This document shows, in pieces, positions 2,244 through 58,955 of a stretch of 64,000 bases of DNA. The position numbers were made by a program, and so were the translations under genes. Each line of letters opens with the position of its first letter. The first letter of the stretch is position 1. The stretch covers positions 5,084,001 to 5,148,000 of the forward strand of contig NC_073400.1 in the NCBI RefSeq assembly GCF_028641065.1, given 5' to 3'. This stretch comes from Leucoraja erinacea (lineage: Eukaryota). The notes below the pieces were generated by a model. That model had not been told where the DNA came from. It did no database searches and saw only the letters and a program-made list of their open reading frames with translations.

Positions 2244-2717
2244 TTTCACAGGGGTACACAAATCTGAAATGTATAGATATTTGATAGTGATATATAACAA
2301 AATATTTCCGCTTGAACTATTGCTTTGCTAAATAACACCAGCCACAATAAAATATTCACCACTCACGATTTAGGCTGGAAAAAACTACTGGTACTACTTA
2401 TTTAATTTTCTCCCCACCCATTCTAATTTAACTGAAACACTTAATCTGAAAATGCAGTTTCTTAGTGGGGGCAGATAATAGAAAAAGTATTGAATTATCA
2501 CCCGGGTCTCCGGCGCTTCATTCGCTGTAGGGCAGCAACTCTATCGCAGCACCACCGTTGCTTTTATGTATTCCTCAGCTCATTTGCCCAGCTAATAAAG
2601 ATCCTGCTACAATTTTTAACAATCATCTTTGCTCTCTACAATACCACCTACTTTACTGTTATCTGCAAAAAACTTACTAATCTATGAGACACGATCTCCC
2701 ACGTACAAAACTATGCT

Positions 2718-2853
2718 TCTTCTTCTTGGGTATGGCGTGCACAGCCTAACGTTGTAGGACAACTTGTTCTATTTGATCTTATTTGATTGTGCACACCGGG
2801 TTGATTGCATTTGTCGAAACAGGTTCCACATGAAGGTTGCAATCTCCCACCCC
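2718..2853 (-). mobile_element. Ribozyme-headed short retroposon, copy 1
   Basis: (GAA)n tail; TSD aaaactatgct (2707-2717) / aaaaccatgct (2855-2865). Confidence 0.85.
2803..2853 (-). ncRNA. Degenerate HDV-like ribozyme, copy 1 (P3'/P1' disrupted)
   Basis: Same motif, but GGUCCGCCCU is replaced by GGAACCU. Confidence 0.6.
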
Positions 2854-3439
2854 AAAAACCATGCTGATGATCCCTGATCAGCCGTTATCCATGTAAATGC
2901 AGAGTTGACTGCTTTGATACCGGAGGGGTCCTATTCTCTCACCGGTCACCCTTTTCACCTTAATGTACTTATAAAATCTCCTGGGATATTTTATACAAAA
3001 AAAGTCAAAGTGCTGGAGCATCTCTGGAGGACATGGATACGTGACGTTTTGAATCGGGGCCCTTATTCAGACTGATCGTAGTGATGGAGGGTGGAGAGCA
3101 GGACAGAGCCTGATGAATGATAGATTGATACAATTGAGGAGGGTTTTGATCAGCAGTTGGGTGGACAAAACCCAGAGACTGGAAGAAGACAAAATACCGT
3201 GAGATAAGGAGAGGCAAGGCTCAAAATGTGAAGACAGAGGAAGGGATACAAGGGGAGGGGGGAATGGGAAAGGATTTTGTTGGTTAATTACCAGAGATTG
3301 GAGAATTCAACATTCATACCAATGGGTTACAAGCCAACCAAGTATATTAAGACCAAGGGAGAGGATAGGGCCTCTAGAGCAACACAGTTATCTATGTGTG
3401 GATCCATAGGAGGTGGGTGAATTGTCAAATGAATATTTT

Positions 3440-4520
3440 GCATCTATTTTTTCATGGAGAAAGACATGGGCGATAGTGAACCCAGATAATTCAATAGTGA
3501 TGTTTGAAGAGTCCACTTTACAGAAGAGGAGGTGCTGGAGATCTTATAACACATAAAGGATACATTATTGGGCCCTGATCCTGCACTGTAGGATATTGTG
3601 GGAGCTGGTAAAGAAATTGTGGAGCCCTTGGCAGTGATATTTGGATCACTGATCGCCATGTGATGTGCTGGAATACTGCAGGAGGGTGAATGTGGTGCCT
3701 CTCTTTGAGAAAATCTGCAAGGAAAAGGTTGGGAATTGCAGACTGGTAAACCAAACATCAGCAGTGGGTAAGTTTTTGCAGGGGAGTCTGAGGAACAGGA
3801 TCTACATGCACTTGGAAAGGCAAGGACTGATGAGGGGGAGGGGGGGGGAGGAGGAGGGGGAAGTCAGCATGAGTTGCTGCATGGGAAGCATTTTCACATA
3901 GGTGTCCAAAAAGGTTGATGACAGTGCAGAAGACATTGTCCACATGTCCTTTAGCAAGGCCTTGGACAAAGTACCATATGGTAGCCTGGTCTGGAAGATT
4001 AGATCCTATGGATCCGGGATAAACCAGCCAACTGAATGCAAAGCTTGACTTGAAGGTAAGAAACCAAGGATAGAAGTCTGCATGTAACATGTGCTGTGCC
4101 ACAGGGACAGTATTAGGTCGTTCCACAATTCAATATTTATCTTAACCATTTGTATATTAATCAGGTAGCATGGATAGTAAGTTTGTAGATGACCCTAAAA
4201 TTGGTGGTAAAGAAGGTTACCTAAGATTACAACATGATCTTGGTCAATGGGCAAAGGAATGGCAGATGGAGTTTAATTTAGATATATGGAGAAGTATTAC
4301 ATTTGGATTTGACAAACCAGAGACCTGGAGGTACAGGTACATTGTCCCATATAATTGGTGACACAAGTGGATGAAGAAGGCACTGCATTGAGCTGGATAT
4401 TGAATACAGGAACTGGGGCATCATGTTACATCTGTACCACTATTGTGGTCCTGTGTATAGTTCTGGAGGCCCAGCTACAGTATATGAAGGATCTCTTTAA
4501 ACTGGAAAAATCTTTTTTCG
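3440..4520 (+). mobile_element. Old CR1 LINE ORF2 remnant
   Basis: NVVPLFEK, GNCRLVN, KFVDDPKIGG, WQMEFN motifs. Confidence 0.8.
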
Positions 4521-5280
4521 AGGAGAACTTCTTCAAAGTTGGTATCCCTGGAAGTGAGGTGGCAAGGAATTTAAGTTAGTGAAACCGGAAAAACTACAAA
4601 TCCCAGAAATCTGAAATAAAATCAGAAACCGAAAGATCTTGAACCTGAAGCATTAACTGTTTCTTTTGCAACACATGTTGACTACCTGTTGAATGTCTAT
4701 TGCATTTTCAATCTGTATTCCTATCTACATAACCCAAAACAAAATGCTGGAGTAACTCAATGGAACAGGCAGCATCTCAGGAGAGAAGGAATGGGTGATG
4801 GTTCTGGTCGAGACCCTTCTTCACTGAAGTCTGGTCTCGACCCGAAACGTCGAGCGAAGAAGTGTCTCATCCCGAAAGTCACCCATTCCTTCTCTCCAGA
4901 GATGCTGCATGTCCGGCTGAGTTACTCCAGCATTTTGCATCTATCTTGGGTGTAAACCAGCATCTGCAGTTCCTTCCTCCACATCTTCTCAACGAAAGGT
5001 GCTCTAAACTCAGTTTTCCTTGGTGCGTCTCAGTGGGAAGAAATGTTTGAGGTGAAAATGCTCCTCTAAAGAAGTGTTGACAGAGATACATCATGAGATC
5101 CGAATCACACTTTATTCTCCAAGAATGTTTTGCATCATATGAGGAATTTCATTGGCCAGGTCAGACATACAATTAAAAGTAACAGAACACTCAAGAACAC
5201 ATTTTAACGAACGCCCACCACAGTGACTCCAACACATTCCTCACTGTGATGGAAGGCAAAATAAAGTACAAGTCCTTCCC

Positions 5281-5700
5281 TTAGTTAGGGCTTTATTCTT
5301 TGGAGCGCAGAAGGTTAAGGGGGGACCTGATAGAGGTCTTTAAAATGATGAGAGGGATAGACAGAGTTGATGTGGACAAGCTTTTCCCTTTGAGAATAGG
5401 GAAGATTCAAACAAGAGGACATGACTTCAGAATTAAGGGACAGAAGTTTAGGGGTAATATGAGGGGGGACTTCTTTACGCAGAGAGTGGTAGCGGTGTGG
5501 AATGAGCTCCCAGTGGAAGTGGTGGAGGCAGGTTCATTGGTATCATTTAAAAATAAATTGGATAGGCATATGGATGAGAAGGGAATGGAGGGTTATGGTA
5601 TGAGTGCAGGCAGGTGGGACTAAGGGGAAAAAAAAAATTTGTTCGGCACGGACTTGTAGGGCCGAGATGGCCTGTTTCCGTGCTGTAATTGTTATATGGT
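5281..5700 (+). mobile_element. Young CR1 LINE 3' fragment
   Basis: ERRRLRGDLIEVFK...FFTQRVV; TSD ttagtt; inserted inside another retroposon. Confidence 0.9.
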
Positions 5701-6210
5701 TAGTTCTCCCGCAGTCGTGGGCCTCGAGCCCCCATTGACGGGATGATCTTGACTCCCATAGCCTGCGGCGTTCGGGCCATCCGCGTCGAGGCGATCAAGC
5801 TCCCGCATCAAGGGGGTGTCAGCTCCCCCGCGCTGGACGATCAAACCTCACGTCGGGACTGGTCGAACCTTCCACGATATTGGAGCTCCCGACTCGGCCT
5901 CACCCGAGACTGCAAGTGCTTGGTGTTGGGTCCGCAGTGGTCGCGGTGGGACCCATCCCAGGCCCCGCGGTGGGGCTCACGACAGTCCGAGGCGGCTTCC
6001 AGCTCTGTCGACGGTAGGCCGCAGAGCCTGGAGAATGTGATCCGAAAATCAATCACATCTCCGGGAAGGTAAGAACCTGAAAAACAGTTCCCCCCTTCCC
6101 CCCACATAAAACAAACCGAAGAACAATAAAACAAAAACTTTTAACAAACTAAGAAATAACAAAGAGAGTGAAAAGACGAACAGACTGCTGGCAGGGCAGC
6201 CATCGCCCCC

Positions 6211-6224
6211 GCGCCCCCTGGTGG
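6211..6224 (-). promoter_or_regulatory. CTCF consensus site
   Basis: CCACCAGGGGGCGC, exact match to the CTCF core consensus. Confidence 0.5.
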
Positions 6225-6464
6225 TGCGGCCACAAGTGGTTAGACCATGTGGTGAGGTTAACAGTGACCGTCAATTTCTAAGCCTCAGAAACTTTCCAAG
6301 CATCAGGGTTTAGGAGTTGCTTTCTATTCTGGGAGAGTAGAATCCATCTCTATCCTTTACAGGAAACACCAAGCAGAAAGATCGCATAGATTTTTGAGGG
6401 GTTTCTGATGTTTGTGGGTTTTGTTGAATGCATCATATTGAAAACAGCGCAATTAAATCCTGGA

Positions 6465-6680
6465 TAGATACAAAAGGCTGGAGTAACTCAGTGGGTCAGA
6501 CAGCACCTCTGGAGAAAAGTAATAGGTGACATTTCGGGTCAAGACCTTTCTTCAGACTGAAGTCTCGACTCGAAACATCACCTATTCCTTTTCTCCAGAG
6601 ATGCTGTCTGACTTGCTGAGTTACTCCAGCATTTTGTGTCTACCTTCAGTTTAAACCAGCATCTGCAGTTCCTTCCTACA
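6465..6680. repeat. Inverted pair of Penelope terminal repeats
   Basis: Arms ~6465-6556 and ~6557-6642 are reverse complements; same arrangement at ~4737-4982, ~16834-17064 and ~26575-26760. Confidence 0.85.
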
Positions 6681-7644
6681 ACATTGTTAGCTGTGGCCTA
6701 GGTGAGAACGAGAACAGGCATGACTCGCATGACTTTTAAGCTGGTTTGACTTGGGAAGTGGGGCAATAGAGAATGCATGGTTACTTGAGGCTCTCAGTTT
6801 GAAGGGTCTCAACCTGAAAGGTCACCTAATCCCAGAAATGCTGTCTGACCCCCTGAGTTACTACAGCTTTTTGGGTCTATTTTCGGTTTAAACTGCATGC
6901 CCTCCTGTCAGTTCTTTATTTGTCCACCACTATCAACTATTAGATATGGCAGGACTACAGGCCTTTGATCAGATCAACAGACAATCTATCAAAGGACCCG
7001 GTGGGATCTACAGCAGATTGTTTGTTGCTCCTGATTCCATGTCTCTTGTATCTCCTTCGATCAGATCCATTGGTTGTGAGATTGCTAAACGCTGCCTATT
7101 GCATGCTGCTTTCTGTTTGCCTGTATTGCAGCTTTGCCAGGTTGGTAACACTTCATTGTTAGTTTTGCATGGTGCTACTCCCAACATGTTATGAACTCGT
7201 CTTTAAATCATGGTTGATCACCCGGCTTAATATTGATGGTAAAATCAGGGAATGTGCCCGGGCCATGTTAGAAATTGTGGGGGGTGTAGATTTCTGCCTC
7301 TGCTGTTGATTCACAACAGCTTATGGATACCCAGTTATGAGTTGCCAACTTTGTTCTGAGTTTTCTCTATCAGTGTTCCTCAGCTGTAGTTCATAACAAC
7401 TGTCCTCAGTATAACTGCAATGCCACAATAGGATGGAAACTTTCAACAGAGTGAGGATGGGAATTGTGGATATGCATGGAATGGAGGAATGTGGATCATG
7501 TACAGGCAAGAGTTTTGTTTTTAACGGCATCATATTCTGCATGGATATTGTAGACAAACGGCTAGTTTATGTGTTGTACCATTGTATGCCACCACAGTGT
7601 CTGTGCATGGTAATTTCTACCAATGTTGCCATGGATTGATGCAT

Positions 7645-7815
7645 CTGTAATTTCTACATGATGAAGCCAAAATGTATAAAAATAGCCGTTATTAAAATCT
7701 GTCAATTTTCACTTTAATCACGTGATTTTTTCCCAATTAAACATCTCAAATTGTGGAGTACAGCGGCAAATAAATAATGATGGGTCTTTGTCCCAAACAT
7801 TATGGAGGGCACTGT
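7645..7815 (+). mobile_element. Isolated outer right TIR of the same Tc1 family
   Basis: Reverse complement of ~18986-19160; ends ...ggagggcactg followed by TA. Confidence 0.8.
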
Positions 7816-7867
7816 AGATGGTAGAAAGGGGTGGGGATAAACTGGTGAGCAATAGGTGGATCCAGGT

Positions 7868-8590
7868 AGTCTGAACAAGGATCTCAACCCGAAACGTCAC
7901 CCATTTCTTCTCTCCAGAGATGCTGCCTGTCCCGCTGAGTAACTCCTGTATTTTATGTCTGTCCAGGTACAGAGGGTTGATTGGCAGATGTCGGGGGGAG
8001 AGAAGGGTGGAGATAGTTGCAAAGGCTGGAAGTGATGTGGAGAATGCATTGGGTTGCAGATGGGGTAATCCAGTAAGAAAGGAAGGTGAGAGATGGAATG
8101 GAAAATAAAAGTCATTGCAGGTAGATGAGAGGGGGAGGGACAAAAGTAAGGGTGGAAGGGAAATAGGGGACCCAAAGGAATGGGGTGGGTGATGAGCAGG
8201 AGGCGGAGAAAGGAACTGAAGTGATGGGGTGTGGAGTTACTGAAGGGACAGGGAGGATAAAGAAAGGTGTTTGTGTGAGAACCTGGATAGATCTGAAAAG
8301 AGACAAGTGTTCTACATGAAATTGGAGAAATCAACGTTCACGGCGTTGGGTTGTCGGCTACCCAAGTGGAATGTGAGATGTTCTTCCAGTTTGCGTGTGC
8401 TTCACTTTGACAATTGATGCAAAGGGCAGTAATGTTGGTATGGGGATGAGAAGGGGAATTGAAATGGCTTGAAACCAAGAGCTCAGGCTGATGCTGTTGG
8501 ACTGAGCACCAGTGTTTGGCACAGCAGTTGCCTGGTCAATGCTTGGTCTCACTGATGTGGGGGCCACATCATGAGCATGAAATGCACTAG
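7868..8590. mobile_element. Penelope-like remnant: plus-strand terminal repeat joined to minus-strand endonuclease fragment
   Basis: Same repeat family as 42085-42700. Confidence 0.7.
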
Positions 8591-10865
8591 GAGAGGGTTG
8601 GATTGGTGTGGAGTGAGTGGATGGCTGTATGTTCTAGGGGTGGGTTTGCAGTAGGCGAGGGAAGTGGAGATCAAGACAGTCAACATCACATAAGCAGTTG
8701 GAAATGAAAGAGAAAAAACAGAAGGCTAGAAGAGGTTGCCCAAAAGCAAGATACATGTTGGAGACAGAAGAAAGGGTCATCAGTAGCGTCAAGGAGTTCT
8801 CACCGACGATAAAGGCATGGAGGCGATGGTTGGGCTCGACCTCATTAAGGTGTAGGCATATGGGTACCAGGTTTGGCCTCTGCTGGAGACTCAGCAGAGG
8901 GGGAGAAGTTCCGGGGAAATGGAGAAGACACAGCAGGTATTAGAGCTGGGACTAGACAGGGGATCAGCAGAGTCAAGGGTGGTGGGAGGAGGGGAGCTCA
9001 GAGGAGTGAGTGGAGTGTGGGATGGTTTTAGGCTTGGGGGTGGAGGATGCAATCAATGACAGGGGAAGTGGTGTGGCCCGCTGGTGTCAGGCATCACCCT
9101 GGCAGTAGGAAATGAAAACGAGAAAGAGTAGGACGGACGGAATCATGTGTCTCCAGCTTTTAGCTTTTGTATTCTCCTTTTAAAAACAATGAAGTTACAT
9201 TTGCCATTTCCAACGCAAAGACACTGCTTCATTATCTGTATAATTGGGGAAGATGATGATTAGTATAATCATAAGATACGTATTGTGAGTTGGTGAATCA
9301 CCTTTCAAAAGATTATAAGTCTTCTGGCAACTCTGAAGGATCAACAACCATAAATTATTTCATGATAGTATAATCAGAAATGCATTATAGATATTATCAG
9401 ACTAAAGGGGTTGGAATGCAAGCTGAAGATAAAACCCAAGAATCTTCCAGTGATATTTGGAACATTAATGAGTACACCAAAAGTTTGTTTCTATATTGGC
9501 TTTAGCGGCAGTCAGCAACAATATGGTCAACAGAAACATCAGTTGGCAAATGAAGCTCAATGCCGTGTACGTCATGAATGAATGACCGAATAAGTTTATT
9601 GGCCAGGTATTCACATACAAGGAATTTGCCTTGATGCACAAGGAGCAGTACAACGTGGCAGCCATCGTCGGCGCCAGCAGCAGCAGCTACACCGCAAAGT
9701 CATGTGGCATGTCATTTTGTTGACATATAAACAGCTGTTAGATGCTACACACGTTAGTGAGCAAACCAGCCAGAACAGAAAGGATAATTGAAAATACCAG
9801 ATAAAGAAACCAATTCAGTTCAGATAAGATTGAGGCATTTGCAGTAAATATGGACTTGTGTGCTGTGACAATGTGGCATGATTAGTAAACCTAACCAAAC
9901 CAGAAAAACAAGAATTTATAGAAAAGGAGAAATAGAAAATTAGTTAGATGACACTGTGGAAGATCAAGATTTAAATTCATACATCAATTAAGCGTCAAAT
10001 TTAGGTGGAAGAATAAAATAATACATTGTGAATAAATGATCGTATTCATGGGATGGGGGTCTGCTGGCAAGAGCAATGCACACTGGCCAAAACATGTAAA
10101 TGCAGCAAGTCTGAAATACAAGCCGAAAAATTAGCCACATCACTGCTTCAGCCGCATACATTTAGTACAAACTGCCTTACTCAGCCAACACGTATCAAAC
10201 CATAAATATTTACTTAATAATGCACATAACTCAATAAATGTTAAACATTCAACAATCACAAAACACGTTCTTTTCACTGAGCATTTTACCAACAAAGTCT
10301 GAAGTTCACATGCAAATGAATACCATGATCACATGCACAAGAACTTTCTAAAATGTATATGTTCGTGGGAAGTGAATGTCACTGGCAATATAGGCATATA
10401 TAATCCTTCTATATTTGCCCTTGAACTGTGCAGGCAGTCACTATTATAATCATATTTTATTCCAATTGAGATGAATTTGTAAATTAAGTACTCAAGTTAC
10501 TTTTTGAAAGAGTGAGTATTTCACAGCACAGGGAAGCCAAAAACATTTCTCTGTACAAGGAGTTGAACAAGCCAGTTTGAACCTTACAAAGTTCCACAAA
10601 TATCAAGAGATGTGGCTATAAATGAGGGATATAATGTTAGTTGGTGGGACTTTCTGGACTATTTACTTGATAGACAAACTATATTAATAAAACCAGGAAA
10701 TGCTGGAAACTCTCAGCAGGTCATGTAGTATCTATGGAAAGAGAAACGGGGTTAACATATCACATCATTAGGGCATACCAGGCTCCCTTCAAGCTGAAAC
10801 TTTTCCCAGGTGCTGCAGGGCTGACCTCCCAAAGGTTTTAGCCATCAATGTGCATTATTCGACAA

Positions 10866-11680: not shown

Positions 11681-12329
11681 AATCAAGTTTAACTTCCTTG
11701 GGAGCAATACCACAACCAGATCAATAGAGTGTCAGCCAAAGATCATACTGCAACCTGCATTAAATGTCAAATGCATGCAGTAGATCACTTTGAAAATGTT
11801 ACTGTCATAGCAGCTGACTGAAGCAGCTGAACTCTGTTGGTGAACAAAATTGAATTATTCCACAAATAACTCAGTAGGATTACAGATTCTCTTTTCTCTA
11901 CATTTGGAGAGAAAAGACAGGTTAGCATTCAACTAACTTGCTAACCGAGCTACAGAAAAGGAATTCTCTTTAACACCTTCCATTTCTGTAATCCTTTCCA
12001 AATTTCCTTCAATTATGTGCTCTTGCACATCCCCATGTATTCATTGTATCCATTCAGTTGAGCAGGCTCAAAGCTCTGGAATCCCTTCCCCTTTCAAGGC
12101 CTCGCTAAAGAAAATTTGACAAAGTTAGTCCCCGTGTGTCCATGATGTGACTTAGTATCAATTAAATGTTCCCGTAATGAAACCAGGGGTAGTTTACATT
12201 AAACAATTATATAAATGTGTTCCTGTCAGCTGAATAAAGTCAATGTGCACTCCTGAAGAGTGGGGTCAAATGTACCAGTCACCTACAAAAATAATAACAG
12301 TTATATCTGTGGTTACCACGAGGTGCTTC

Positions 12330-30560: not shown

Positions 30561-33328
30561 TCAACTTTAATATTCCTCTGATCCTACAAAGTCTGAGGCA
30601 AATAGTTGGTGCATAGGGTTAGATAGTGACAATATCATGCTGTATATTCAAAAGCAATACGTAATTTGTTAGAATAAATGGGTAAATAAAGCAAATTTCT
30701 CATACAAAAGTTGATGCGATGAGGATGCTGACAGCAGCCAATTTCAATCCGCTGTCACACCCATAATTATTTCCTCAAACCTTGAAGCACAAATGGTGTG
30801 GGTTTTCAGAAAATAGCAATAATAGAATAATTGGAAAGTCAGCAAATCTAAAAAGAGTTTTGGTTACAACTGCTTGAGCACAAAGACATAAGCATGAAAG
30901 CATGGACAACATTTCGATGATAGTACACTTGCAACATTTCCAAATGTACTGTGACTGGGGTTGTCTGCTTTTTCTGAATGTGTACGGCTCTATATTTGAC
31001 TTTATATATACTTCACTATATATACTTTAGTTTAGTTTATTCTTCCTACTGAAGCCAGTGAAGAGAAATGTATTACTGCCATTCTCCACCTGCCCCCGAC
31101 TCCTGCACAAAGATGTACAGTATAGATGTACATCTATACAGTCCTCTGTCATTTTCACAACCTCCAACGTGACCCCACCACTCGCCACATCTTCCCATCT
31201 CCCCCCGTCTGCTTTCCGCAAAGTCCGCTCCTTCCGTAACTCCCTGGCCAATTCTTCCCTTCCCACCCGCACCACCACCTCCCCAGGCACTTTCCCTTGC
31301 AACCGCAAGAGATACAATACAATACAATACAATTTATTTGTGTCATTTGAACCTCATTGAGGTTCAAACGAAGTTTGGTTTCTGCAGTCATACACACAAG
31401 AAAAAGAACCAAGACACAGCACAATTTACACAAACATCCATCACAGTGAATCTCCTCCTCACTGTGATGGAAGGCAAAGTCTTATCTCTCTCCTGCACTC
31501 CTCATTCTCCTCCCGAGTCAAAGCCCCCGGCGGGCGATGGCAAGTGTCCAGCGGCCATTAAAGCCGCGCGGGGCGATGTAAGGCCCCGCTCCAGGTAATT
31601 TTCAACCCCACAACTCGGGCGGGAGAAGTCGCCGTTGCGGAAGCCCCGAAAAGCGGTCTCCCAGCAAGGACCCGCGGGCTCCCGGTGTCACCGTCCACCA
31701 GACCTGCGGTTGGAGCCTCCGAATCCCCGGGGAGAAGAAGGGTTTCGGCCCAAAACGTTGCCTATTTCCTTCGCTCCATAGATGCTGCTGCACCCGCTGA
31801 GTTTCTCCAGCTTTTTTGTGTACCTTTAATTGTACCTCTGTTTGATGCAATTTAATTAGATAACACACAAAAGTTTTTCGCTGGCCCTCGGTACATGTGA
31901 CAATAATCAACCAATACCAATCCTATCTACCACAACATGATAGAGGTTGCTAATCCATTTCAAAGGGAATTTAAGACCCTTAAATTAATTCAATCATTTG
32001 GAACATATCTGGAATCACATGTCGGCCAGATCAGGTGGGGATGCTAATTTCCTTCCCTGATGAACCAGATGGCCAATATTACCAAACATTCTGTTCCTCT
32101 ACTGCAACTTTTCTAATCTGCCATGTTATTCCTTCTACATTTTCATTAGAAACCAAAAGATCCAATATTAAAAAGAAATCCAAAATTACAATTTTCAATG
32201 TCTTGCAAACCTAACCTATCTGCTACACTTCAAACTATGGAATATGCACTATCCGAGTCTTGACACAAAGACATTAAGTCTTGACCTGTACTGTATTTGT
32301 AGTTAAAATGTTATACCTCAATGCCAACTTTTCTCACTTGAATATCTTACTCCATATTTATTATGAAACCTGCCTGATTACACATCACACTAATTACATC
32401 CTTTGACTTGTGATGGTCTTGCGATGCTCAATTTTGCATCTCCCATCTCCTATAAAATACGCATGAGAAACATTTGCACTGGGACCAACTCAACTCTTCT
32501 ACTTAATCAGGCATCAAGCCAAGTTTATTATCATATGCACAAGTACGGTTACATTGAAAATCAAATAAGGAGACCGAGAAAATAAAATGGAGACCAATTT
32601 AAATCTATACACCCCGAATTAACTGATTTCTGACCTCAGCAAAAAGAGACATGAATTGAAAACCATGAAAAATAAATGGTTCTAATTTGCAGACACAAAC
32701 GACATGTCAACCCAGAATGTTAACTATCTAATGTCCCCCCACAAATGGTACTTGACCTGCTGAGTTATCCCAGCAGATTGTTTGTTGCTCCAGTTCATAA
32801 TTGATGCATTAGTCATACCTTATGGAAATAGGCCCTTTGGCACAACTTGCCCATACTGACCAACATGCACTAGTCTCACCTGCCTGCATTTGGCCCATAT
32901 GCTTCGAAACCTATCCTATCCATGTAGCATCCAATGTTTTTTAATCATTGTGGTAATACCTGCCTGAACTACCTCCTTTGGCAGCTTCCATGTACCCTCC
33001 ACCCTTTGTGTAAAGTTCTTGATTCCCCTACTCTTGGTAAAAGACTGTGCATTTACCCTATCTATTCCTCTCATGATCTTAAACACCTCTAGAAGATCAC
33101 CTCTCATCCTCCTGCATTCCAGGGAATAAAGTCCTGGCCAGATCAACCTCTCCCTATAGCTCAGTCCCTCGAGCCCTGGCAACATCCTCGTAAATCTTCT
33201 CTGCACCCTTTCCAACTTAACAATAACCTTCATATAACAGAGTGAACACAATACTCTAAATGAGGCCTCACCAACGTCTTATACTTATGTACCATGACGT
33301 TCCAACTGTTATACTCAATACTTTGACT

Positions 33329-33467
33329 TCTTCTTCTTGCGTACGGCATGCACAGCCTAAAGTTGTCGGACAACTTGTTCTATTTGATCTTATTTGATTG
33401 TGCACACCAGATGGATTGCATTCGTCGAAACAGGGCGGACCAGGTGAAGGTTGCAATCTCCCACCCC
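33329..33467 (-). mobile_element. Ribozyme-headed short retroposon, copy 2, inserted in a CR1 remnant
   Basis: (GAA)n tail; TSD aatactttgact (33317-33328) / aataccttgact (33468-33479). Confidence 0.9.
33414..33467 (-). ncRNA. HDV/CPEB3-like ribozyme fold, copy 2 (L3 G->C variant)
   Basis: GGGGUGG GA GAUUGCA ACC UUCACCU GGU CCGCCCU GU UUCG A CGAA UGCAAUC. Confidence 0.8.
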
Positions 33468-33921
33468 AATACCTTGACTGAAGGTCTATGTGCCGAAAGC
33501 CTTCTTGTGATATCACTTTCAAGGATCCCACTGCTCTTCAACATTTCCTAGCCCTGCCATTCAGTATGTAGCTCCTGCCCAAGTCAGCCTTCCCAAAGTG
33601 CAACACACCAGATTTTTCTGCATCAAATTCCACCAACCATCCCTCAGCCCACCTGCCCAATCGATCAAGTAACTGCTGCAATTTTAAACGTCCATCTTTG
33701 CTATCAGCACCTCACCAGTCTTTAATGATAACTCATAAATCGCAGCCAGGACACCTGCAATTTCCCCTTCAGCTTCCCACAGTATCCTCGGATATATATG
33801 AACATGCCCGGGAGATTTGACTACCTTCATACATATTAGGACCTTCAGCACCACCTCGAGTTTTCCACTTTGACTCTTGAGGGTGCCCATTCTCTCTCTG
33901 CTTACCCTTTTTTTCCTTTAA

Positions 33922-47421: not shown

Positions 47422-47525
47422 CACTGGACCAAGTGGGACCCGTTGGGTCCCTGTCACACAGGAGGTCTGGTCCCCCAAGGCAACCCGTTCCCCAACGCAA
47501 TATTCCACCACTCACCCATAGCTAG
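47422..47525 (-). mobile_element. Helitron-like 3' end
   Basis: Minus strand reads gggacccaacgggtccc-acttggtccag. Confidence 0.55.
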
Positions 47526-48636: not shown

Positions 48637-50789
48637 GGAACTGAGCAGGCCAGGCAGCACCTCTGGAAACATGGAACAGATGACGTTTCAGAGCTGAAGA
48701 AAGGTTTCGACCAGAAACCTCCTCGATACCTTTACTCCAGAGATGCTGTCCAACCCGCAGCATAAACAATCTTTATATTTTGTATATAAATAATCTTTAA
48801 TGTGCAAGAATATTTGACAGTATGAATGGATGTAATAACTAATACTTGATGAAAAAGGATTTTTGAAGAATACAACAATTACACGTGAAAGTGGGGTGAA
48901 GAGAATGAGATTGAGACAAAGAAGGGGAATAAGAAAGACAGGGAGAACAAGCTAAAGTTATATAATAATAAATCTTTATACAATACTTAAGCAACTCAAT
49001 GAAATCCAACTTATCAAAATCACAGCTGAGAGCATCAAAACTTTTCCTGCACTTTAATTACATAGCAAGACATCTTTAGTGCCAATAAACGTATAAAGCC
49101 TTTTATAACAAGCAAAATGTCCAAGGCGCTTCACTAAAGAGAATAGACAAAATTGATATGACTTATTTGGTATTTCTGGGGAAATTAACAATATAAGAAG
49201 TCAGAAATAGGTTTAAAGAAACATCAAGGAAGAGAGAGATAAAGAGAAGAAATGAAATTCAAGGAGACAACTCTAGTACTTGAGCTGCAGACGTTTGAAG
49301 ATACAGCCATCACAGTTTGGGGAGTGCCAGGAAGATGTACAAAAGATCGGTGCAGGAGGAGCAAAGGATTTGTAGAGCAAGAGGAGGTTACCATGATAGG
49401 GAGCTGCAAGGCCATGGAAGAACTTGAAACCAAAGCCAATGATTTTAAAGGTATGCAAGCCAAATTTGTCATCAAGAACACAAATGATGAGTAAACATGG
49501 CAGTGTGACATGGGCAAAAATGTTTCAGATTAGCACACGTATATAGAGAGTGCAAATTGGAGGCCAGCAGAAAAACACTGGAATATCGTTCTAATTATTA
49601 GAAGTTTAAGACATAAAAAGAGCCTGGACTGCACAAAGGTATCCGTCAAATGAAATCACATCCTCTTAATAATTTCCTTACAAAGTCAGAGTAAGAAGCT
49701 TCACCATTCACTGAGCTCAACAACTCACTGAGGCACTGCACCAGAGGATGTACAATGTGATGCCACAATATACCCATGCAGTTTCCACCACAGTTACTTT
49801 ATTTGGAGGTTTACCTAAAATCACATTGTTGAAGAACAGTTTACTGCAGAAGATGGAAGACTAACCTACAAAAGGTGCACCTGTTTGGAGCTTTCATTTA
49901 GAGTTTCAAATTTTGTTCTAAAAGAAAGCAAGTCATTTACAAAGCTCTGCTCACACTGTCAAAAGCAGAAGTATTTGGAACTATATCGCCACTCCCCTCC
50001 CCAACATGACTTAAATTTCTAACTTCCCCAGTGTCGTGATTCCATATTACAGCACAAGGAAGTAACAAATTGTTAGACTGGAACATTTTGAAAAATCTAA
50101 AGGAAGAATAAATTAGTCACCACCCTACAAGGTTGGAAAATATCAGAGCAGTAAGGTTCCACCTGCTATCTCGTACGGAAGTCACTAAATTGAGGCAAGC
50201 TTAGGCCTTCATAAGTGAAATGGTATTGAGAGAAAAAAATTGACAGCAAGCAATTGCAATCCAAGTAAATGTCTTTGTGGCATCTTCACCAGGACTTACA
50301 AAACAACATCATGCTTTTTCATTACAGCTATATGACAGCAACAGTATGATATATGGAAGCTTAATCATCTCCAAAACATTCAGAGTAGACTTTCATAATT
50401 TTTGAATGGTAATAGTAATATAAACACCTGATTACAATGAAGACAATTTAACAGGAACATGAGGAAGTCACATTAATCCTTCTAGTTCAGTTTGAAAGCA
50501 GATAATACAGCAAAAAGGTGAAAATCGCAGGGAATGGGGCAGACCAGTTCCCAGTTCTCATCACCACCCCAAACACTATCCCCATCAAGCTAGCTATAAA
50601 ATTGAAAGCTAAGAATGGCAGCTACAAATTGAATGATAGCAACTAAAGGACAAGCAAAAGTAGATGTCAGAAATGAAAACCCATAAATGCAAGAATATTT
50701 TTTTATGATAATAAAATCAAGGCATTGATTGTGAACTTCCTTCTTTGAAAAGTACTTCATCAGTAAATGTCATCAATGTATAAAGTGAG

Positions 50790-53060
50790 CACATAACACA
50801 GAGTGGGTAAATGTGCACTGAACCATTCCAGAGCATGAGCAGGCATATAATCTCAGTGAAAGGACATGGTCTCTACTCTACAGTGTATGGCCGCCAGTGC
50901 ACAACAAATTCTTTGACAGAGCATACATGCCCTGCTTTCAGGTGCGGACACACAATGTCCTTATTCAGTTTCAGCATTCGGGCTAGGAGTAAATGCCATT
51001 CCTTGGCTGAGAGTGAGTATTGGTTCTTGGGTGAATGTAAGCAATGGGCATACACTGTCATGGCCATTTATTCAGCAAACATACACAGACTCAGGCAGAG
51101 CTTTATTGGTATGAGTGCATTGTCCTCAGGTAGACTGCAAGAACAGTGCATTACCCCAGGCTATGTGTGAATAACATGAATGCACTGCCTTCTGACTGTG
51201 AAATACCAACAGCCTGAATGTAAGCAACAAATGTGAATGTGCGCTGTGTTCATGCACTGTCCCGTACTGAATGCAAACAGCATGCGTTTGCCTGAAGACC
51301 AAGTGTGAGCAGTGAGCATATAGTGACTGGGCCAATGTGAGCAACAAGTGTGTACTGTCCCTAGATTAACTGCAAGCAGTCTATGTGAACTACCCTGTAT
51401 ACAGTCAATGAGCAATACACTGATCCACAGCAGAATGCAAGTGTGTACTGTCCCTGGGCTCAATTTGAACAGTGAGTGTGCACTGAGCTCATGAGAGCAG
51501 TGAGTGTGCACTGTCATAGAAACATAGAAAATAGGTGCAGGAGTAGGCCATTCGGCCCTTCGAGCCTGCACCGCCATTCAATATGATCATGGCTGATCAT
51601 CCAACTCAGTATCCCATCCCTGCCTTCTCTCCATACCCCCTGATCCCTTTAGCCACAAGGGCCACATCTAACTCCCTCTTAAATATAGCCAATGAACTGG
51701 CCTCAACTACCTTCTGTGGCAGAGAATTCCAGAGATTCACCACTCTCTGTGTAAAAAAATATTTTTCTCATCTCAGTCCTAAAAGACTTCCCTCTTATCC
51801 TTAAAGTGTGACCCCTAGTTCTGGACTTCCCCAACACCGGGAATAATCTTCCTGCATCTAGCCTGTCCAACCCCTTAAGAATTTTGTAAGTTCCTGGACA
51901 ATGTGAACAGTGAGTGTGCACTGTCCCTGGACTCAATGTGAACAGTGAATGTATACTGTCCCTGGGGTTAGTGTGAGTAGTAAGTGTACATTGTTCCTTA
52001 GCTCAGTCTGATCAGTGAGTGTGCACTGTCCTTGGGCTGTGTGAGTAGTGTGTGCATTGTCCCTGGGGTGGGTGAGAGCAGTGAATGCACACCGTCCCTG
52101 GGCTCATTGCGAGTGTGTACTGTTCCTGGGCTCAGTGTGAGCAATGAGTGTGCACTGGGCTCAGTGGGAGTGGGGAGTGTGCACTGTCCCTGGGCTCAGT
52201 GTCAGAACAAGCAACGTGTGCACACTGTCCTTGGGATGAACGTGTGTCTTGTATTCAGATCGAGTGTAAAAACAAGTTTGTGCTAACCACCGGCTGAGTG
52301 TAAGGAGAGTATGTATGTACTGTCAACTGACTGATGGTGAACAACAAGCATGTATTGTTTACGAAGGAACTGCAGATGCTGGTTTAAACCAAAGTGTGTC
52401 TTGTACCTGGGATGACTGTCAGCAACAAGTGTGCATCATCACTGGGCTGAATATGAGCGACAAGTGTGCACAGTCCATGAGTTGATTGTGAGCCACAGAT
52501 GTGTACTATCCCCAAGCTGCACGTGTTAACATGCACTGTCCTGAACTGAATGTGCACAAATTTTCACAATGTCCAACTCGAGTGCAAGAATCAAATTGGT
52601 ACTGACCACTGGCTGAGTGAGGGCAATGAGTGTGTGAGGAACAACCATTCAAAGTCATCAAGCATGAATAATACGTGAACTCTGTGGTCTATTTGAATGT
52701 AAGTAACAAGTGTGCATTGTCAACGAACTAAGTGTGAGCAATGAGTGTGCATTGTCCCCAAGCCTAGTAGCATAGCAAGCATGCTTTTCCCGAACTGAGT
52801 GTGAGCAATGAATATATACTGGTTGTAAGAGTAACAAACTTATACTGTCACTGGTTTGAGTGTGATCAATAAGTGTGCCCGGTGTTGAGTCCAGGCAACA
52901 AATGCTAAATGTGCGTGAGCCACGAATGGTCGTGTTCCTGGGCAGCGCAACGTGTGTTTACTATCCTTAAACTTAGTAGAAACAATGTGTGTGCATCGCT
53001 GGGGTTCAGTGCGTGTGTTATCCCTGGGGTTAAGGAGCAATGGATCATGTACTGTCCACA
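50790..53060. repeat. Degenerate ~37-39-bp tandem repeat (gtgtgcactgtccctgggctcagtgtgagcagtga-like), interrupted by a CR1 insertion
   Basis: Recurrent gtgtgcactgtccct/gtgagca motifs; best-preserved units at ~51430-52230. Confidence 0.75.
51515..51892 (-). mobile_element. Young CR1 3' fragment inserted in a tandem repeat
   Basis: TYKILKGLDRLDAGRLFP. Confidence 0.9.
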
Positions 53061-53177
53061 ATCTAGTGTGGAAGTTGTACTAATATTAATAACGGAGCAG
53101 GAAGTTGGGCGAAGGCCGGAAGTTTAAGGCGGAGGCGATGGGGCGCGGATTCCGCAAACCTTCCGGGGAAACAGGGG

Positions 53178-53366
53178 AGCGGGGCCGGGACAGCGGGGGC
53201 CGGGGCCGGGACAGCGGGGGGCCGGGGCCGGGACAGCGGGGGCCGGGACAGCGGGGGCCGGGGCCGGGACGGGAGCAGGGGGCCGGGGCCGGGGCGGGGG
53301 CCGGGGCCGGGACAGCGGGGGCCGGGGCCGGGACAGCGGGGGCCGGGGCCGGGACAGCGGGGGCCG
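53178..53366. repeat. G-rich minisatellite (~21-bp unit gggggccggggccgggacagc), G-quadruplex-prone on + strand
   Basis: Directly visible tandem units with G3-G5 runs. Confidence 0.9.
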
Positions 53367-53564
53367 ACAGACCCTCCCTCCCTCCCGGGGTGAGTGGGTG
53401 AGTGAGCGGGCGGGTGAATGAGCCGGGGCCGGGGAGCACCACACCCGGTCACCGAGTGCCCTGCACCAGACCCACGCTCCTCCCGGGCCACGGGCCTCAA
53501 GCCGCCGGTCTCTCCGCCAGTCTCCACGGGTTGGAGCGGGCAGCGGCGCCAGGGCGGTGCTCAC

Positions 53565-53603
53565 CTTCTCGCCGTCCGACAGCTGCTCTTCCGCGTCCGC
53601 CAT
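53565..53603 (-). CDS. CAPZA1: F-actin capping protein alpha, coding exon 1 (MADAEEQLSDGEK)
   Basis: 39-nt exon, ATG in AAGATGGCG context, donor AAG|GTGAG; matches the CAPZA N-terminus. Paralog assigned from head-to-head synteny with an ST7-family gene. Confidence 0.9.
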
Positions 53604-53713
53604 CTTCACCCCCGTCTTCACCGCCGGCCGCGCCGCATGCTGGGAGCGGCCGTAACATCGCCGCCCTGCCGGGCCCGGGTTGGAGCGGGCAGCGGCGCCA
53701 GGGCGGTGCTCAC

Positions 53714-53756
53714 CTTCTCGCCGTCCGACAGCTGCTCTTCCGCGCCAGTCCGCCAT
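53714..53756 (-). pseudogene. Duplicated CAPZA exon 1 with a 4-nt insertion (43 nt, frameshifted if spliced)
   Basis: Second copy of ATGGCGGAC...GAGAAG|GTGAG inside a tandem duplication (53527-53675 and 53676-53828). Confidence 0.85.
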
Positions 53757-53811
53757 CTTCACCCCCGTCTTCACCGCCGGCCGCGCCGCATGCTGGGAGC
53801 GGCCGCAACAT

Positions 53812-54172
53812 CGCCGCCCTGCCGGGCCCGGCCAGTACTGCAGCTCACAGGCGCCGCCCTGCCGGGCCCGGCCAGTACTGCAGCTCACAGGCGCCGCCCT
53901 GCCGGGCCCAGCCAGTACTGCAGCTCACAGGCGCCGCCCTGCCGGGCCCAGCCAGTACTGCAGCTCACAGGCGCCGCCCTGCCGGGCCCGGCCAGTACTG
54001 CAGCTCACAGGCGCCGCCCTGCCGGGCCCGGCCAGTACTGCAGCTCACAGGCGCCGCCCTGCCGGGCCCGGCCAGTACTGCAGCTCACAGGCGCCGCCCT
54101 GCCGGGCCCGGCCAGTACTACAGCCCCTCAGCGCCGCCCTGCCGGGCCCGGCCAGTACTGCAGTTCGCAGGC
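53812..54172. repeat. 40-bp minisatellite, ~9 copies (gccgggcccggccagtactgcagctcacaggcgccgccct)
   Basis: Exact 40-nt periodicity with few substitutions. Confidence 0.95.
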
Positions 54173-54529
54173 GAGAGAAACAATGAACTATGTAGGAAGG
54201 AACTGCAGATGCTGGTTTACACCAAAGATAGACAAAAATGCTGGAATAACTCAGCGCAATAGGCAGCATCTCTGGAGAGGAAAGGGTGATGTTTCTGGGT
54301 CGAGACCATGAGAGCAAATCTCGTTATAAAGTCAATTGTATCATTCGGGGAAAGGGGGTTAGGAGCTAGAGTTTCAACTCGCAATAACAAAGTAACCTTT
54401 CTTGCAGGATTCAAAATACATTTATTTTCAACACTGTGGAGTTTTGTTAGTGCATTTCCCAGGCTGTCCAGCAGCCCCGCCTCTCAAAGTACCCATCCAG
54501 CTATATCCCTTCCTCAGGCTTCATATTTC

Positions 54530-55035
54530 ACTCCTTTTCTTAGCTGACACTCTTTTGTATCCTTTTCATTTCTCGCCATGGACTCCCAGTCAGCTGAACT
54601 ACCCCTCCTTTCTCCCTGCCTCAAGTCCTTACCTTTCACGCCACCAACACATCAAGTCTCCGACATTTCTGCCATCAATGCAATCCCACCATCAGCCATA
54701 TTTTCCCATCCCTATCTACCCCTTTCTGCCTTCCAGAGACTGCTCCCTCCACAACTCCTTGGTTGACTCACCCTTCCCCACCCCTGCAATCACATGATAT
54801 GGAACACCTGTTCCGATATCCTCTCCCTCACATCCATTCAAGGACCCCAGCAGTTCTTCCAGGTGAGACAGAGGTTTACGTGCATCTCCTTTAACCTCAT
54901 CTACAACATTCGGTGCTCCTGTTGTGGCGTCCTTTACGTTGGGGAGACCAAAAGTAGACTAGGCAACGTTTCTGTTGTACACTTGCACTCAGTCCACTAA
55001 GACCTGCTAGATCTCCCAGTTGCTAAACATTTTAC
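54530..55035 (+). mobile_element. Penelope-like element, GIY-YIG endonuclease remnant
   Basis: FTCISFNLIYNIRCSCCGVLYVGETKSRLG. Confidence 0.85.
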
Positions 55036-55634
55036 TGCAAATTCAATAAAGGCCATGGCCCAAAAAAACAAAGAGAATAGCAATCCTTGCCGAGTGCCCT
55101 AAAGAATGTACAAGAATGCATGGAGGTTTGAAACTAAGAATAAAGGAAGAATGTTTCTTTCAGATTAAAGAAGGAAGTTTACTTTCTTTTCTACTTCTAC
55201 AATGTCCAAAGTCGATTTCTGTTTTGGTGTGGATCAGTAGCTTAGTAAGCAGCACTGGCACTTCTAGGTCAGAAGCTTGTAAGCTTGAGTCTTGCACTCT
55301 AAACTTGACCCCGTTAGGCATGAGAGAGTGCCGCACTTTTGGTGTGATGACTTTTCGATGTTGTTAATCCCTCAGCTGAGTGCTGCTGAATCTATGGCTC
55401 TGTCTAGAATCTACGACTACATGTTTTTCCCCAAAGTCCTGGCCAGTATTTATCCTTCAACTAAGATGACAGAAAAACCTTGCCTTGGCCTTTATCAAGG
55501 TGCCAAAGTGGGACCTGTATGCTGCATTACTAATTATACAACAGTAACTACATTTTAATGTGATGTGATGTGTAAAAGTCATGAAAGGTGCCAAATTTAA
55601 ACATTTATCTGCAACAGAGATGTAATGCTGAGGC

Positions 55635-55930
55635 TCTATAAGGCGCTGGTCAGGCTGCATTTGGAGTATTGTGAGCAAATTTGGGCCCCATAGCCGAGGA
55701 AAGGTGTGCTGGCTCTGGAGAGGGTCCAGAGGAGGTTTACAAGGATGATTCCAGGAATGAGTGGGTTAGCATATGATGAATGTTTGACGGCACTGGGACT
55801 ACACTTGCTGGAGTTTAGAAGGTTGAGGGGGAACCTCATTGAAACTTGTAGAATAATGAAAGGCATAGTTAGAGTGAATGTGGAAAGGATGTTTCCACTG
55901 GTGGGAGAGTCTAGGACCAGAGGTCATAGC
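55635..55930 (+). mobile_element. CR1 LINE fragment
   Basis: LALERVQRRFTRMIPGM. Confidence 0.85.
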
Positions 55931-56304
55931 CCCAATCTCTTTCTTGTATTTTGCAATTACATTTCAATAATAATAATAATAATACGAGACACAAAGTGCT
56001 GGAGTAACTCAGTGTAAAGCAGCATCTCTGGAGCCCTGTATGTGTGACTGTTTGGGTTGTACTCTTCCGCATAGACCCTTCTTCAATAATAAAACGTGGG
56101 TTCAATGACCAAGGAAAAAAACGTAACCTGATGAGATGAAACACAAAAGTGAAGCTGGTGTACTTTCCTTTTACACAGAATTCAACACAACCAGGCCCAC
56201 TATCGGTTTCTCAAATCCAGCTCTGACAATGTTTAAATAATTCCAATGGTGCTCCCATTCCACCCCCTAGTGGCTGCACGATGCAGTGTATGCACAGTTA
56301 AGAC

Positions 56305-56837
56305 CAGGAGTCACCAATCTTTTTCTGCATAGGGGTCAGGACCCATGTCTGTGAGTGGATGGCGGGCCACATATATAAATATTTATATAATTTGAGCAAT
56401 GATATGTCGACTGAATATTGCAGTTACTTTGAGACATTGGTATTGAAACTACCCTCACCCCTCTCTGTCCAAAACTTAATGCAGACCCTTTGTTACCCTC
56501 ACTTCCCCCTCCCTGTTCACTCTCTCTCCCCCCTCTCTCCTCCCCTTCCTGCCCCCTCCCCCTCTCCTCCACCTCCTCCCCCTCCCCACATCAGTAGAAC
56601 CGCGCCCACCGCTCCAACTAACCCTTTGCCCAGTTTGTGGGATTATATCAGTTCCGATTTGTTTTGTATCAGCAAACAGGATTGCTAGGAGCATTAAAGC
56701 AAGTCTTTATGTCGCTGGCCAACAGTATTAAACAGTCTAAAGAAGTCTAGATGATGGGAAAAAAATACGCCTGCGGGCCGGATGATTTCAGGTTACGGGA
56801 TGGATCCGTCTCGTAGGCCGCAGTTTGCCGACCCCTG
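56305..56837. mobile_element. Non-autonomous hAT (Charlie-type) MITE
   Basis: Termini CAGGAGTC...GACCCCTG; perfect 8-bp TSD GTTAAGAC (56297-56304 and 56838-56845). Confidence 0.9.
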
Positions 56838-58750
56838 GTTAAGACATTAGTTCAATGATTCTTTATTATCACGTACCAAGGAACAGTGAAATTATTTTAT
56901 TGCATATAAAAGTAAATAATTACCATACATAACTACAACCCCACATTAAATGCAAAATGTAAAGAAATAGCCCACTGAGGCCATATGCAAGAGGCGCCTG
57001 TTCATGGCGCCATTTTTAAAGTGCAAGTTTAATATATGCAGAAGATCTACCTTCCACCACAACCCTCTCTCTACAAGGCAGATCTGAATCCATTGTGGTG
57101 ACTGGGATGATGCCAGGTTGACAATGACCACACCGACACTCGCGGTTGGGTGAACTTGTGTAATATGGTTTATTTATAGTGACAACAAATTCAATTCTTG
57201 GGGCACTTGTCCCTTGTCTACAGCACGTGAGGAGGTACTGGCCATCTTGGGCTTGTCTCACTAATTCAGTCTTGGTCTCGAAGGAGGAGGCACTGTCGAT
57301 CTCAGACTTACTCCTGCAGTTTTCCTCGAGAGGAGATGCTGGTGGTCGCAGGCTTCCCCGTGGCAGCTCAACTTTGGGCTTGAAGAAGGAAGTGCGGCAA
57401 TCTCAGGCTTACCATGCATTTCACCCTTGCCTTGAGAGGCAGCACTGGGCTTCTCAATCTTAACCCATGGCTCAGTCTTTGCCTCTGTTTATGGTTGCAG
57501 TCCCTCATTGTCTGTGGGCAGGTAAGAGACACCGGCGGTCTCAGGCATGCCCTGACCACTCAGTTTTAGCCTCAGTGCAGGTGCTGGCTGTCTAGGGCTT
57601 CTCCCTGCAGCTCAGTCCTGACCACTAAACGGTGGTGCTGGTGGACTTGGGTTTGTCCCAGCGGCTCAGTCTTCCTCCCGACCTGCAACCGGGGGGCACA
57701 GCAAGTAGGGGGGCATTTAAAATGTTAAGAGGAAGAAAGCTAGAACAATCTTATAATGAGAGCCAGATAATTCATCATTAGTTAGCAGTATATTGGAGCA
57801 AGCCTAAACTTTATTCTCCAGCAGACCTGTTTATTTCAGTCAGTATTACTTCAAATTTGATTATTCTACAAGGATTATTGTAGTGCCAGAGCAGAGCTCT
57901 ATCCAGAATTCATGTTGGATTATCCTATCATGCGCTTCATCATCTTCACTTTAAATTATTTCAGCAATAATATATTTTCTTGCAAGTCTACCCCAAAAGA
58001 TATTCAACTAAAACAGTTCATCAGTCCTTAATCTCTCAACCTCTGGAAAGTAAAAAAAAATGGTGTTAAAAATTTCAAGAGCAAAGGACTTCAGCAAAGA
58101 ATGAAAGAACGTTGTAGGAGCTATGACTCCGTAGCTGGAGTAATTCAGCCTGTTGTATAGTGACGTTCACAATTAATAAAGTCATTCCTTCCATCACAAA
58201 GTCAAAAGTGGGAATGTTTATAGTTGTTTGCAGTGAAGCCGATCTATCCCAGCTTATAAAGGGAGGCAAGAGAGGAGATCGGGGAGGCCTTGATGAGGAT
58301 CAAAGCGTTGTAGTCAAAGGATGTTTGTTACTTTTAGCAATTAATTAATACTTCCATTAAAATAAAATCACATTTTGGCAGTTTCATATCAGGAATACCA
58401 CATTTTTAAAGGTTATGTCCCTCTGACATGACATGACTAAACAGGTAAACTCGTGTACTTTACACCGTATTCACCTGCTGACTTATTATCCAGGATTCAC
58501 ACACTTGTGAGTAATTGAGTATTCCTGCCATCATGCAGAAGATACAGAAGCTTGGAAGCACGCGCCACAAGATTCAGAAACATCTTCTTCTCCTCTGCTA
58601 TCAGGCTTCTGAACAGTCCTTCCAAAAGCTAGCGAACTGTCGGATTCATTGTGGATATTGGACTTTGGCTCTGGAATTGATGCACTAAAATGCTATATTC
58701 TGCACTCTTATTTTTTCCTTTGCTCGTTCTATTGTACTTGAGTTTGTCTT

Positions 58751-58804
58751 GGGGTGGGAGATTGCAACCTTCACGTGGTCTGCCCTGTTTCGACAAATGC
58801 AATC
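58751..58804 (+). ncRNA. Minimal HDV/CPEB3-like self-cleaving ribozyme fold, intact core
   Basis: P1 GGGGUGG/CUGCCCU, P2 GAUUGCA/UGCAAUC, P3 ACC/GGU, L3 UUCACGU, GU-UUCG-A, J4/2 CAAA (putative catalytic C58794). Confidence 0.85.
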
Positions 58805-58886
58805 AACCTGGTGTGCTCAATCAAATAAGATCAAGTAGAACAAGTTGTCCTACAACTTTAGGCTGTGCACGCCATACGCAAAAATA
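58751..58886 (+). mobile_element. Ribozyme-headed short retroposon, copy 3
   Basis: TSD agtttgtctt (58741-58750) / agttgtctt (58887-58895); eroded tail. Confidence 0.85.
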
Positions 58887-58955
58887 AGTTGTCTTGATTA
58901 TATCTATGTATAGAATTGTCTGATTTGATTGGATAGTATGCAATAAAACACATTT

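Follow-up and report, generated by a model that had tools for sequence, protein, structure and literature searches.

A short non-autonomous element built from the two ends of a Vingi-type LINE, with a predicted minimal HDV-like ribozyme head, in Leucoraja erinacea

Copies in the window and in the genome

The stretch of DNA analysed here, referred to as the window, comprises 64,000 nucleotides of the Leucoraja erinacea genome (contig NC_073400.1, positions 5,084,001 to 5,148,000). It holds exons of CAPZA (window 15825-53700, minus strand) and the first exon of ST7 (62650 onward, plus strand), which are arranged head to head. The window also contains copies of a short element that begins with a predicted ribozyme resembling that of hepatitis delta virus (HDV) and shares both of its ends with a long interspersed nuclear element (LINE). 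A blastn search with copy 3 as the query returns exactly three copies in the window (90.6-91.3% identity over 138 columns), which lie where the original prediction, made from the sequence alone, had placed them (Table 1). The first letter of all three is the same G, hereafter G1 (window 2853, 33467 and 58751), and all three belong to the third of the subfamilies described below. The (GAA)n tail is clean in copies 1 and 2, as had been noted, and degenerate in copy 3. Imperfect target-site duplications (TSDs) of 9-12 bp had been proposed throughout; this description holds for copies 1 (11 bp) and 2 (12 bp) and fails for copy 3, where only 7 bp are repeated, without mismatch.

Table 1. Window coordinates of the three copies and of the parts of copy 3
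Feature	Position	Strand	Remarks
Copy 1	2718..2853	-	(GAA)n tail; ~13 kb downstream of last CAPZA coding exon
Copy 1 3' TSD	2707..2717	-	11 bp, 1 mismatch against 2855-2865
Copy 2	33329..33467	-	(GAA)n tail; inside a CAPZA intron, on the gene's own strand
Copy 2 3' TSD	33317..33328	-	12 bp, 1 mismatch against 33468-33479
Copy 3, whole element	58751..58888	+	131-nt body and degenerate tail; between first exons of CAPZA (-) and ST7 (+)
Copy 3 left TSD	58744..58750	+	7 bp, exact; right copy 58889-58895
Predicted minimal HDV-like ribozyme	58751..58804	+	54 nt, descriptor fit
P1	58751-58757/58780-58786	+	7 bp from G1
J1/2		+	2 nt, between P1 and P2
P2	58760-58766/58798-58804	+	7 bp
P3	58767-58769/58777-58779	+	3 bp
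L3	58770-58776	+	7 nt, pyrimidine-rich
Loop in place of P4	58787-58793	+	7 nt, at most one pair
J4/2	58794-58797	+	C-N-A-A; presumed catalytic C at 58794
Segment common with LINE 5' end (nt 1-77)	58751..58827	+	
Junction, absent from LINE	58828..58844	+	Partly duplicates neighbouring A-rich 10-mer; gives one arm of inner hairpin
Segment common with LINE 3' end	58845..58881	+	Last ORF codons, stop codon 58859-58861, 20-nt 3' UTR
Predicted long stem, LINE-5'-derived with LINE-3'-derived part	58809..58873	+	Encloses 7-bp hairpin 58842-58858
ORF, open reading frame; UTR, untranslated region.

In the 2.19-Gb assembly of this vertebrate, an exact 25-letter pattern spanning the internal junction of the short element has 4,867 matches (control: 0), which bears out the expectation of a high genomic copy number with at least that many copies. 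Since the same pattern is present in only five of 12 copies that were met by chance in other loci, the true number is estimated at about 1.2 x 10^4, within a broad range (binomial estimate ~7,000-30,000), and the family probably comprises 1-2 x 10^4 copies. An unselected sample of 49 copies was formed from the first 50 pattern matches on contig C1, minus one duplicate. The 5' end lies at G1 in 44 of these copies, and the other five are 5'-truncated. TSDs of 7-17 bp (median 11) flank 37 of the 49, compared with four of 294 swapped-flank controls, and their first letter is A in 26 of the 37. Together with the tail and the occasional 5' truncation, these duplications agree with the earlier proposal of a non-autonomous element inserted by target-primed reverse transcription (TPRT).

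The 49 copies diverge from the column majority by 5.2%. Five carry the letters of the LINE at diagnostic sites and form the oldest subfamily, ten form a second and 31 a third, and three are unplaced. In sequencing runs from nine organisms, 79-100% of the sampled words of the element are present, and four DNA runs of other organisms show the same two element ends in unrelated flanks, which indicates from sequence reads that the family is older than several species. Two scans of metagenome contigs returned no match, and related-locus searches yielded no usable relative.

Two further observations concern individual copies. Six near-identical copies with common flanks (L005, L013, L015, L019, L021 and L042; for example G000:C1581:388791-391924) represent a single insertion inside a later-amplified repeat of more than 2.7 kb, and differ only in (GAA)n length. 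Three TSD-flanked loci (L083, L097 and L099) consist of the ribozyme and almost nothing but the tail, which suggests template jumps during reverse transcription.

Shared ends with a Vingi-type LINE

The original prediction called for an autonomous LINE sharing both ends of the element, and such a LINE of ~3.1 kb is found in the same genome, in broken copies only. The route to it led from an endonuclease family search to a first single-ORF LINE and then to the database relatives of that LINE. Most of these proteins end in W-x-x-x-L-D-x-x-L-stop, an ending that one frame of the 3' half of the short element resembles (p = 0.02, post hoc). The C-terminal 80 residues of one of these relatives, used as the query in a genome search, located the partner: at seven of 30 loci the ORF ends in LDLQL-stop within 37-46 nt that are common to the end of the short element (87-97% identity). 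The N-terminal region of the partner has 38 genomic matches, and element positions 1-78 adjoin it, wholly or in part, at 19 of 30 loci (78-92% identity). Among 20 longer loci fetched, five carry both element ends in order on a single LINE copy. Three of these are near full length and flanked by TSDs (L315, which starts at G1 and has an 11/11 TSD; L312, which starts at G1; and L311, with a 12/13 TSD), and two (L316 and L318) are internally deleted. By sequence, then, the short element consists of nt 1-77 of the LINE, followed by a junction of ~17 nt and by the last ~37-45 nt of the LINE with its (GAA)n tail.

This comparison fits the SIDE-like design (short internally deleted element) that had been envisaged, because the 5' and 3' halves are the two ends of one LINE. 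The term 'SINE-like' (for short interspersed element) undersells an element whose halves both come from a single LINE. A tRNA search of the window found none, Rfam gave no match in the window nor around copy 3 even at E <= 10, and no A or B box lies in the element within one mismatch of what we take to be the box consensus, all of which agrees with the earlier remark that no tRNA, 5S or 7SL head or A/B boxes are visible. A conventional RNA polymerase III (Pol III) SINE, or a set of random 5'-truncated LINE ends, would account for the shortness, the LINE-derived tail and the five truncated copies in 49. Both are extremely improbable given a head that is the LINE's own 5' end, the absence of tRNA, Rfam or box matches and the single start of 44 copies, and both were rejected on these grounds. 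Sequence comparison thus places the element among the bipartite non-autonomous LINEs with an internal deletion and not among the Pol III SINEs.

The 3' half is predicted to fold, at minimum energy, into a 10-bp outer stem and a 7-bp inner hairpin. The original prediction described this fold; the pairing stands, and the sequence given for it was a composite from which each window copy differs in at least one letter. Folding z-scores are -3.2, -1.8 and -1.6 for copies 1, 2 and 3, and -3.3 for the less decayed copy L004. Changes in the later subfamilies perfect both the 10-bp stem between the LINE-derived halves and the 7-bp inner hairpin. In the full LINE, the two ends pair with each other no better than shuffled sequences do (p about 0.3), and the long stem is therefore proposed for the short element only.

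The partner has a single ORF encoding an endonuclease and a reverse transcriptase (RT), with PF14529 and PF00078 on natural frames. Its copies are colinear with P0047, an intact relative of 1,019 aa that has both domains (44-84% identity per piece; 72% for the RT segment). RNase H was found neither on P0047 (E <= 1) nor on the C-terminal frame of one of the partner copies. A tree was built from 36 of 39 segments (three were short or without a match and were left out; no RTE, Ingi or named Vingi protein was a row). In it the partner belongs, along with a Vingi-2_Gav-like family, to a 100/98 clade apart from rows that we take to be of Nimb, CR1 and Crack type. The 5' end of the clade-mate family has a 19-nt exact stretch in common with Vingi-2_Gav (compared by eye with the supplement of Kojima 2018). 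Vingi elements are defined by a compact single ORF with an apurinic/apyrimidinic endonuclease (APE) and an RT (PMC13708176). These sequence features indicate that the partner is a Vingi-type LINE and not an RTE element, which had been suggested as the mobilizing LINE.

A pattern across the LINE 3' junction has 163 genomic matches (control: 0), so that the short element, with 4,867, is ~30-fold commoner. None of the 132 scored partner matches has an open frame above 478 aa, and the LINE thus looks extinct. Pairwise identity stands at 88% for the short copies and at 90% for the LINE heads, and this similar decay suggests that the element and its partner were active in one past burst that is now over. 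The LINE junction appears in one RNA run; in four DNA runs of other organisms, no internal loose end is among those listed, as may be expected when the LINE is 30-fold rarer than the short element. At ten of the 30 partner N-terminal loci (L281, L284, L289, L292, L299, L300, L301, L303, L305 and L307, of which two are possibly duplicates), the 5' part is inverted relative to the 3' part, and the ribozyme head often lies where the two meet, an arrangement like that left by twin priming.

Several other families came up in the search for the partner. The first Vingi-type family (L149), with a TAAA tail and its own HDV-like head, was rejected because its ends differ. The best endonuclease matches (30 loci) come from a LINE, presumably of Nimb type, that was rejected for its lack of similarity to the element. 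When a LINE junction was sought near nt 51-68 with exclusion patterns, 123 and 169 matches resulted, and the 60 loci examined are defective short elements carrying deletions, insertions or truncations; these patterns misled because the true junctions are those at nt 77 and 95. No match was obtained with a back-translated RT motif in which certain letters were excluded. In all, at least five Vingi-type families with different ends are present (L149, L231-L260, L474-L493): one is (TAAA)n-tailed with ~5,000 candidate fragments, four are (GAA)n-tailed, and two have HDV-like heads that include P4. There are also young LINEs that we take to be of Nimb type (L191-L196, L204-L206), whose open frames reach 1,200+ aa and whose 3' ends bear stem-loops as well as (GAA)n tails.

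A predicted minimal HDV-like ribozyme head

Nucleotides 1-54 of the element fit the nested double pseudoknot of HDV-like ribozymes, beginning at G1 and lacking helix P4, in a modelled fold. The original prediction had proposed a ribozyme head without naming its class. The modelled fold agrees with such a head, and copy 3 alone among the window copies passes the HDV-like descriptor: a 3-nt loss breaks the P3/P1 strand of copy 1, and in copy 2 the conserved G of L3 is replaced by C. The sense-strand copy in the CAPZA intron (copy 2) is thus one with a damaged core and the intact copy 3 is intergenic, too few cases to interpret. Just upstream of the first exon of CAPZA, a 40-bp GC-rich unit forms a tandem array (window 53732-54251).

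The presumed catalytic C is retained in 17 of 17 LINE heads and in 41 of 45 short copies, and both A residues of J4/2 are invariant. Three lineage-level changes fall inside the ribozyme, in J1/2, in P1 (U-A to U-G) and at the variable letter of J4/2, and all three keep the fold. The short form without P4 is present in all 17 aligned heads of the partner LINE. The sister Vingi-type families and the 5' end of Vingi-2_Gav likewise have an HDV-like head, with an identical or near-identical L3 and a G-U after P1, but carry a long P4 and a GCG/CGC P3 where the P3 of the element is ACC/GGU. Because two sister families and Vingi-2_Gav keep P4, the simplest reading of these sequences is that P4 was lost inside one Vingi lineage, which thereby converged on a layout known from phages. 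One might instead regard the head as a decayed, inactive remnant of the P4-bearing ribozyme, with the fixed 5' end produced by run-off of the RT on a short RNA. The long P4 of the sister families does make the head a deletion form, and its activity is only predicted. Nevertheless, the partner LINE already had the short form and spread with it, the lineage-level changes preserve the fold, and phage loci possess the same short layout, so we judge this explanation unlikely.

Minimal ribozymes without P4 were described by Kienbeck et al. 2024 (PMC10879173), who found four tRNA-linked examples to be active; ~99% occur in Caudoviricetes, and none was reported there from human, mouse or protist genomes. 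The head of the element resembles these minimal or theta ribozymes in the absence of P4, in its short J1/2 and L4 and in its size of ~55 nt, and its 13-nt P3-L3-P3 core is present in 410 rows of the table in PMC10879173. The rows examined have the 7/2/7 lengths of P1, J1/2 and P2 and the CUAA junction of the partner LINE. In the published theta rows examined, P1.1 consists of 2 bp (GA or GG), as compared to one G-U pair in the element, and three strings of this G-U type are absent from the theta table in PMC10879173. The element also differs from theta ribozymes in being a vertebrate retroposon, with no tRNA in the window and no phage. Given this context and a P1.1 unlike that of the rows examined, we do not class the element, on present sequence comparisons, as theta.

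Viral contigs carrying the same 13-nt core (91 matched, 80 loci returned, 57 distinct contexts) offer an independent test of the fold, since the core pattern fixes neither P1 nor P2. Seven contexts fit the strict descriptor and 17 the relaxed one, and 13 of the 17 abut a tRNA; flank shuffling yielded 0/1,140 fits for either descriptor. The contexts that fold have the layout of the element head with different letters in P1 and P2. With the P3 of the sister Vingi families, none of five phage contexts folds, and with a third P3 nine of 17 fold, so the phage P3 is not fixed. A 16-nt core has 17 viral matches, about the chance level by a rough estimate, of which only the folded, tRNA-adjacent ones were used. 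Because P3 and L4 of the element match the phage form and not the sister Vingi form, it may be asked whether the head shares ancestry with the phage ribozymes and replaced the Vingi form with P4, and whether the roughly one fifth of copies that are intact (thousands) cut host transcripts today; we find this combined proposal quite improbable.

Among the viral loci, L343, L348, L362, L398, L400, L404 and others are tRNA-adjacent minimal HDV-like ribozymes with a G-U after P1 (a P1.1 of one pair), and in many of them J4/2 is longer. The published theta table (PMC10879173) lacks two strings of this sort, which may represent an unlisted subgroup. In another recurring phage motif (L334, L335, L339, L345 and similar loci), the core is again the same and a P1 is apparent, but a longer 3' part falls outside the minimal descriptor; this motif is possibly HDV-like with P4.

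Mobilization and significance of the family

We favour, with a probability of about 0.85, an element in which the ends of a Vingi-type LINE are joined with the coding middle missing, the head is predicted to be a minimal ribozyme, and the LINE enzyme likely pasted the copies. The element would have arisen by internal deletion, and its 3' end in common with the parent and its similar age suggest that the parent's protein mobilized it in trans. Presumably, a copy is transcribed, mostly as part of a host transcript, and the ribozyme head would cut the RNA just before G1. The LINE protein would then bind the common 3' end and nick a target that begins with A, with priming on the (GAA)n tail. The short RNA would usually be copied to its very end, which fits both the shared start of the copies and their 30-fold surplus relative to the parent.

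Several points weigh against this reading. P1.1 is a single G-U pair, and J1/2 is just 2 nt; for a different HDV-like ribozyme, activity was low when this linker had 1 nt and higher when it had 3 nt (PMC4908430). Only 11 of the 49 copies have a fully intact descriptor, and no HDV-like model of Rfam matches even at E <= 10. Cleavage before G1 is a prediction from the fold, for which the start at G1 in 44 copies is an indirect hint only, and the RNA evidence consists of contigs, which are unable to show transcript starts. The choice of Vingi over Ingi rests on the absent RNase H, as the tree holds no Ingi sequence. Finally, (GAA)n ends are also found in at least two other Vingi-type families and in three that are presumably of Nimb type, and part of the spread could thus have used another enzyme.

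The clearest rival, possible though considerably less probable, keeps the same origin and partner and treats the 77-nt head mainly as an internal promoter that starts transcription at or near G1, the role of the ribozyme being confined to trimming the end or shielding it. It is live because Pr77 of L1Tc and NARTc, from the sister Ingi clade of trypanosomes, is both promoter and ribozyme (PMC3383444; PMC4035085), and the short element has kept 23 nt of LINE leader past the ribozyme. RTE and baggins elements with HDV-like ribozymes are, on the other hand, described as promoterless and ride host transcripts (review PMC6765202). In two probable RNA assemblies, the contigs that contain the element run past it in either direction into unrelated sequence, which fits passenger transcription and is compatible with a promoter.

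A second rival accepts the LINE-derived origin and has the element copied later by another active (GAA)n-tailed LINE, either another Vingi-type family or the one that we take to be of Nimb type. Copies of the latter with 1,200+ aa frames and (GAA)n tails exist, and the scored partner matches offer no long frame. However, similarity to Nimb 3' ends is at the chance level, short copies have decayed as much as partner copies, and the only near-identical short copies stem from one insertion inside another amplified repeat. We therefore hold this course to be rather improbable, and retain the partner LINE as the likely source of the enzyme.

The bipartite architecture is already known, so the element does not found a class of its own among mobile elements. 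Non-autonomous LINEs formed by internal deletion have been reported, according to PMC5786205, from RTE, Ingi, Vingi and R2 only. Like the Vingi-1_EE derivatives, RIME (ingi), NARTc (L1Tc) and Bov-A (PMC5786205), the element has only the 5' and 3' ends of a LINE; its parent is of Vingi type, of another family and host, and its body is 131 nt. It differs from them in its ribozyme without P4 and in its ~30:1 excess over the parent. R2 SIDEs (PMC3414825) similarly join a 5' HDV-like ribozyme to a LINE 3' end and move by TPRT, but are rare and site-specific in rDNA, whereas the thousands of copies of the element are scattered, have TSDs of variable length and derive from an APE-type LINE. In the literature searched, with Repbase, Dfam and subscription papers outside its scope, no paper describes a ribozyme without P4 in an animal retrotransposon, or this family.

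If the ribozyme assignment is true, minimal HDV-like ribozymes without P4, reported almost only from phages, would extend to a vertebrate retrotransposon, and the family would offer thousands of natural ribozyme variants and a compact 54-nt construct. Vingi elements, together with their 5' and 3' UTRs, are under development as tools for inserting genes (PMC13708176). The element, with its 77 + ~40 nt, may be regarded as a naturally occurring minimal template for an enzyme of the Vingi type, one that marks the end sequences sufficient for mobilization. Its thousands of dispersed intact copies would also permit a genome-wide look at the purging of self-cleaving inserts from the sense strands of genes.

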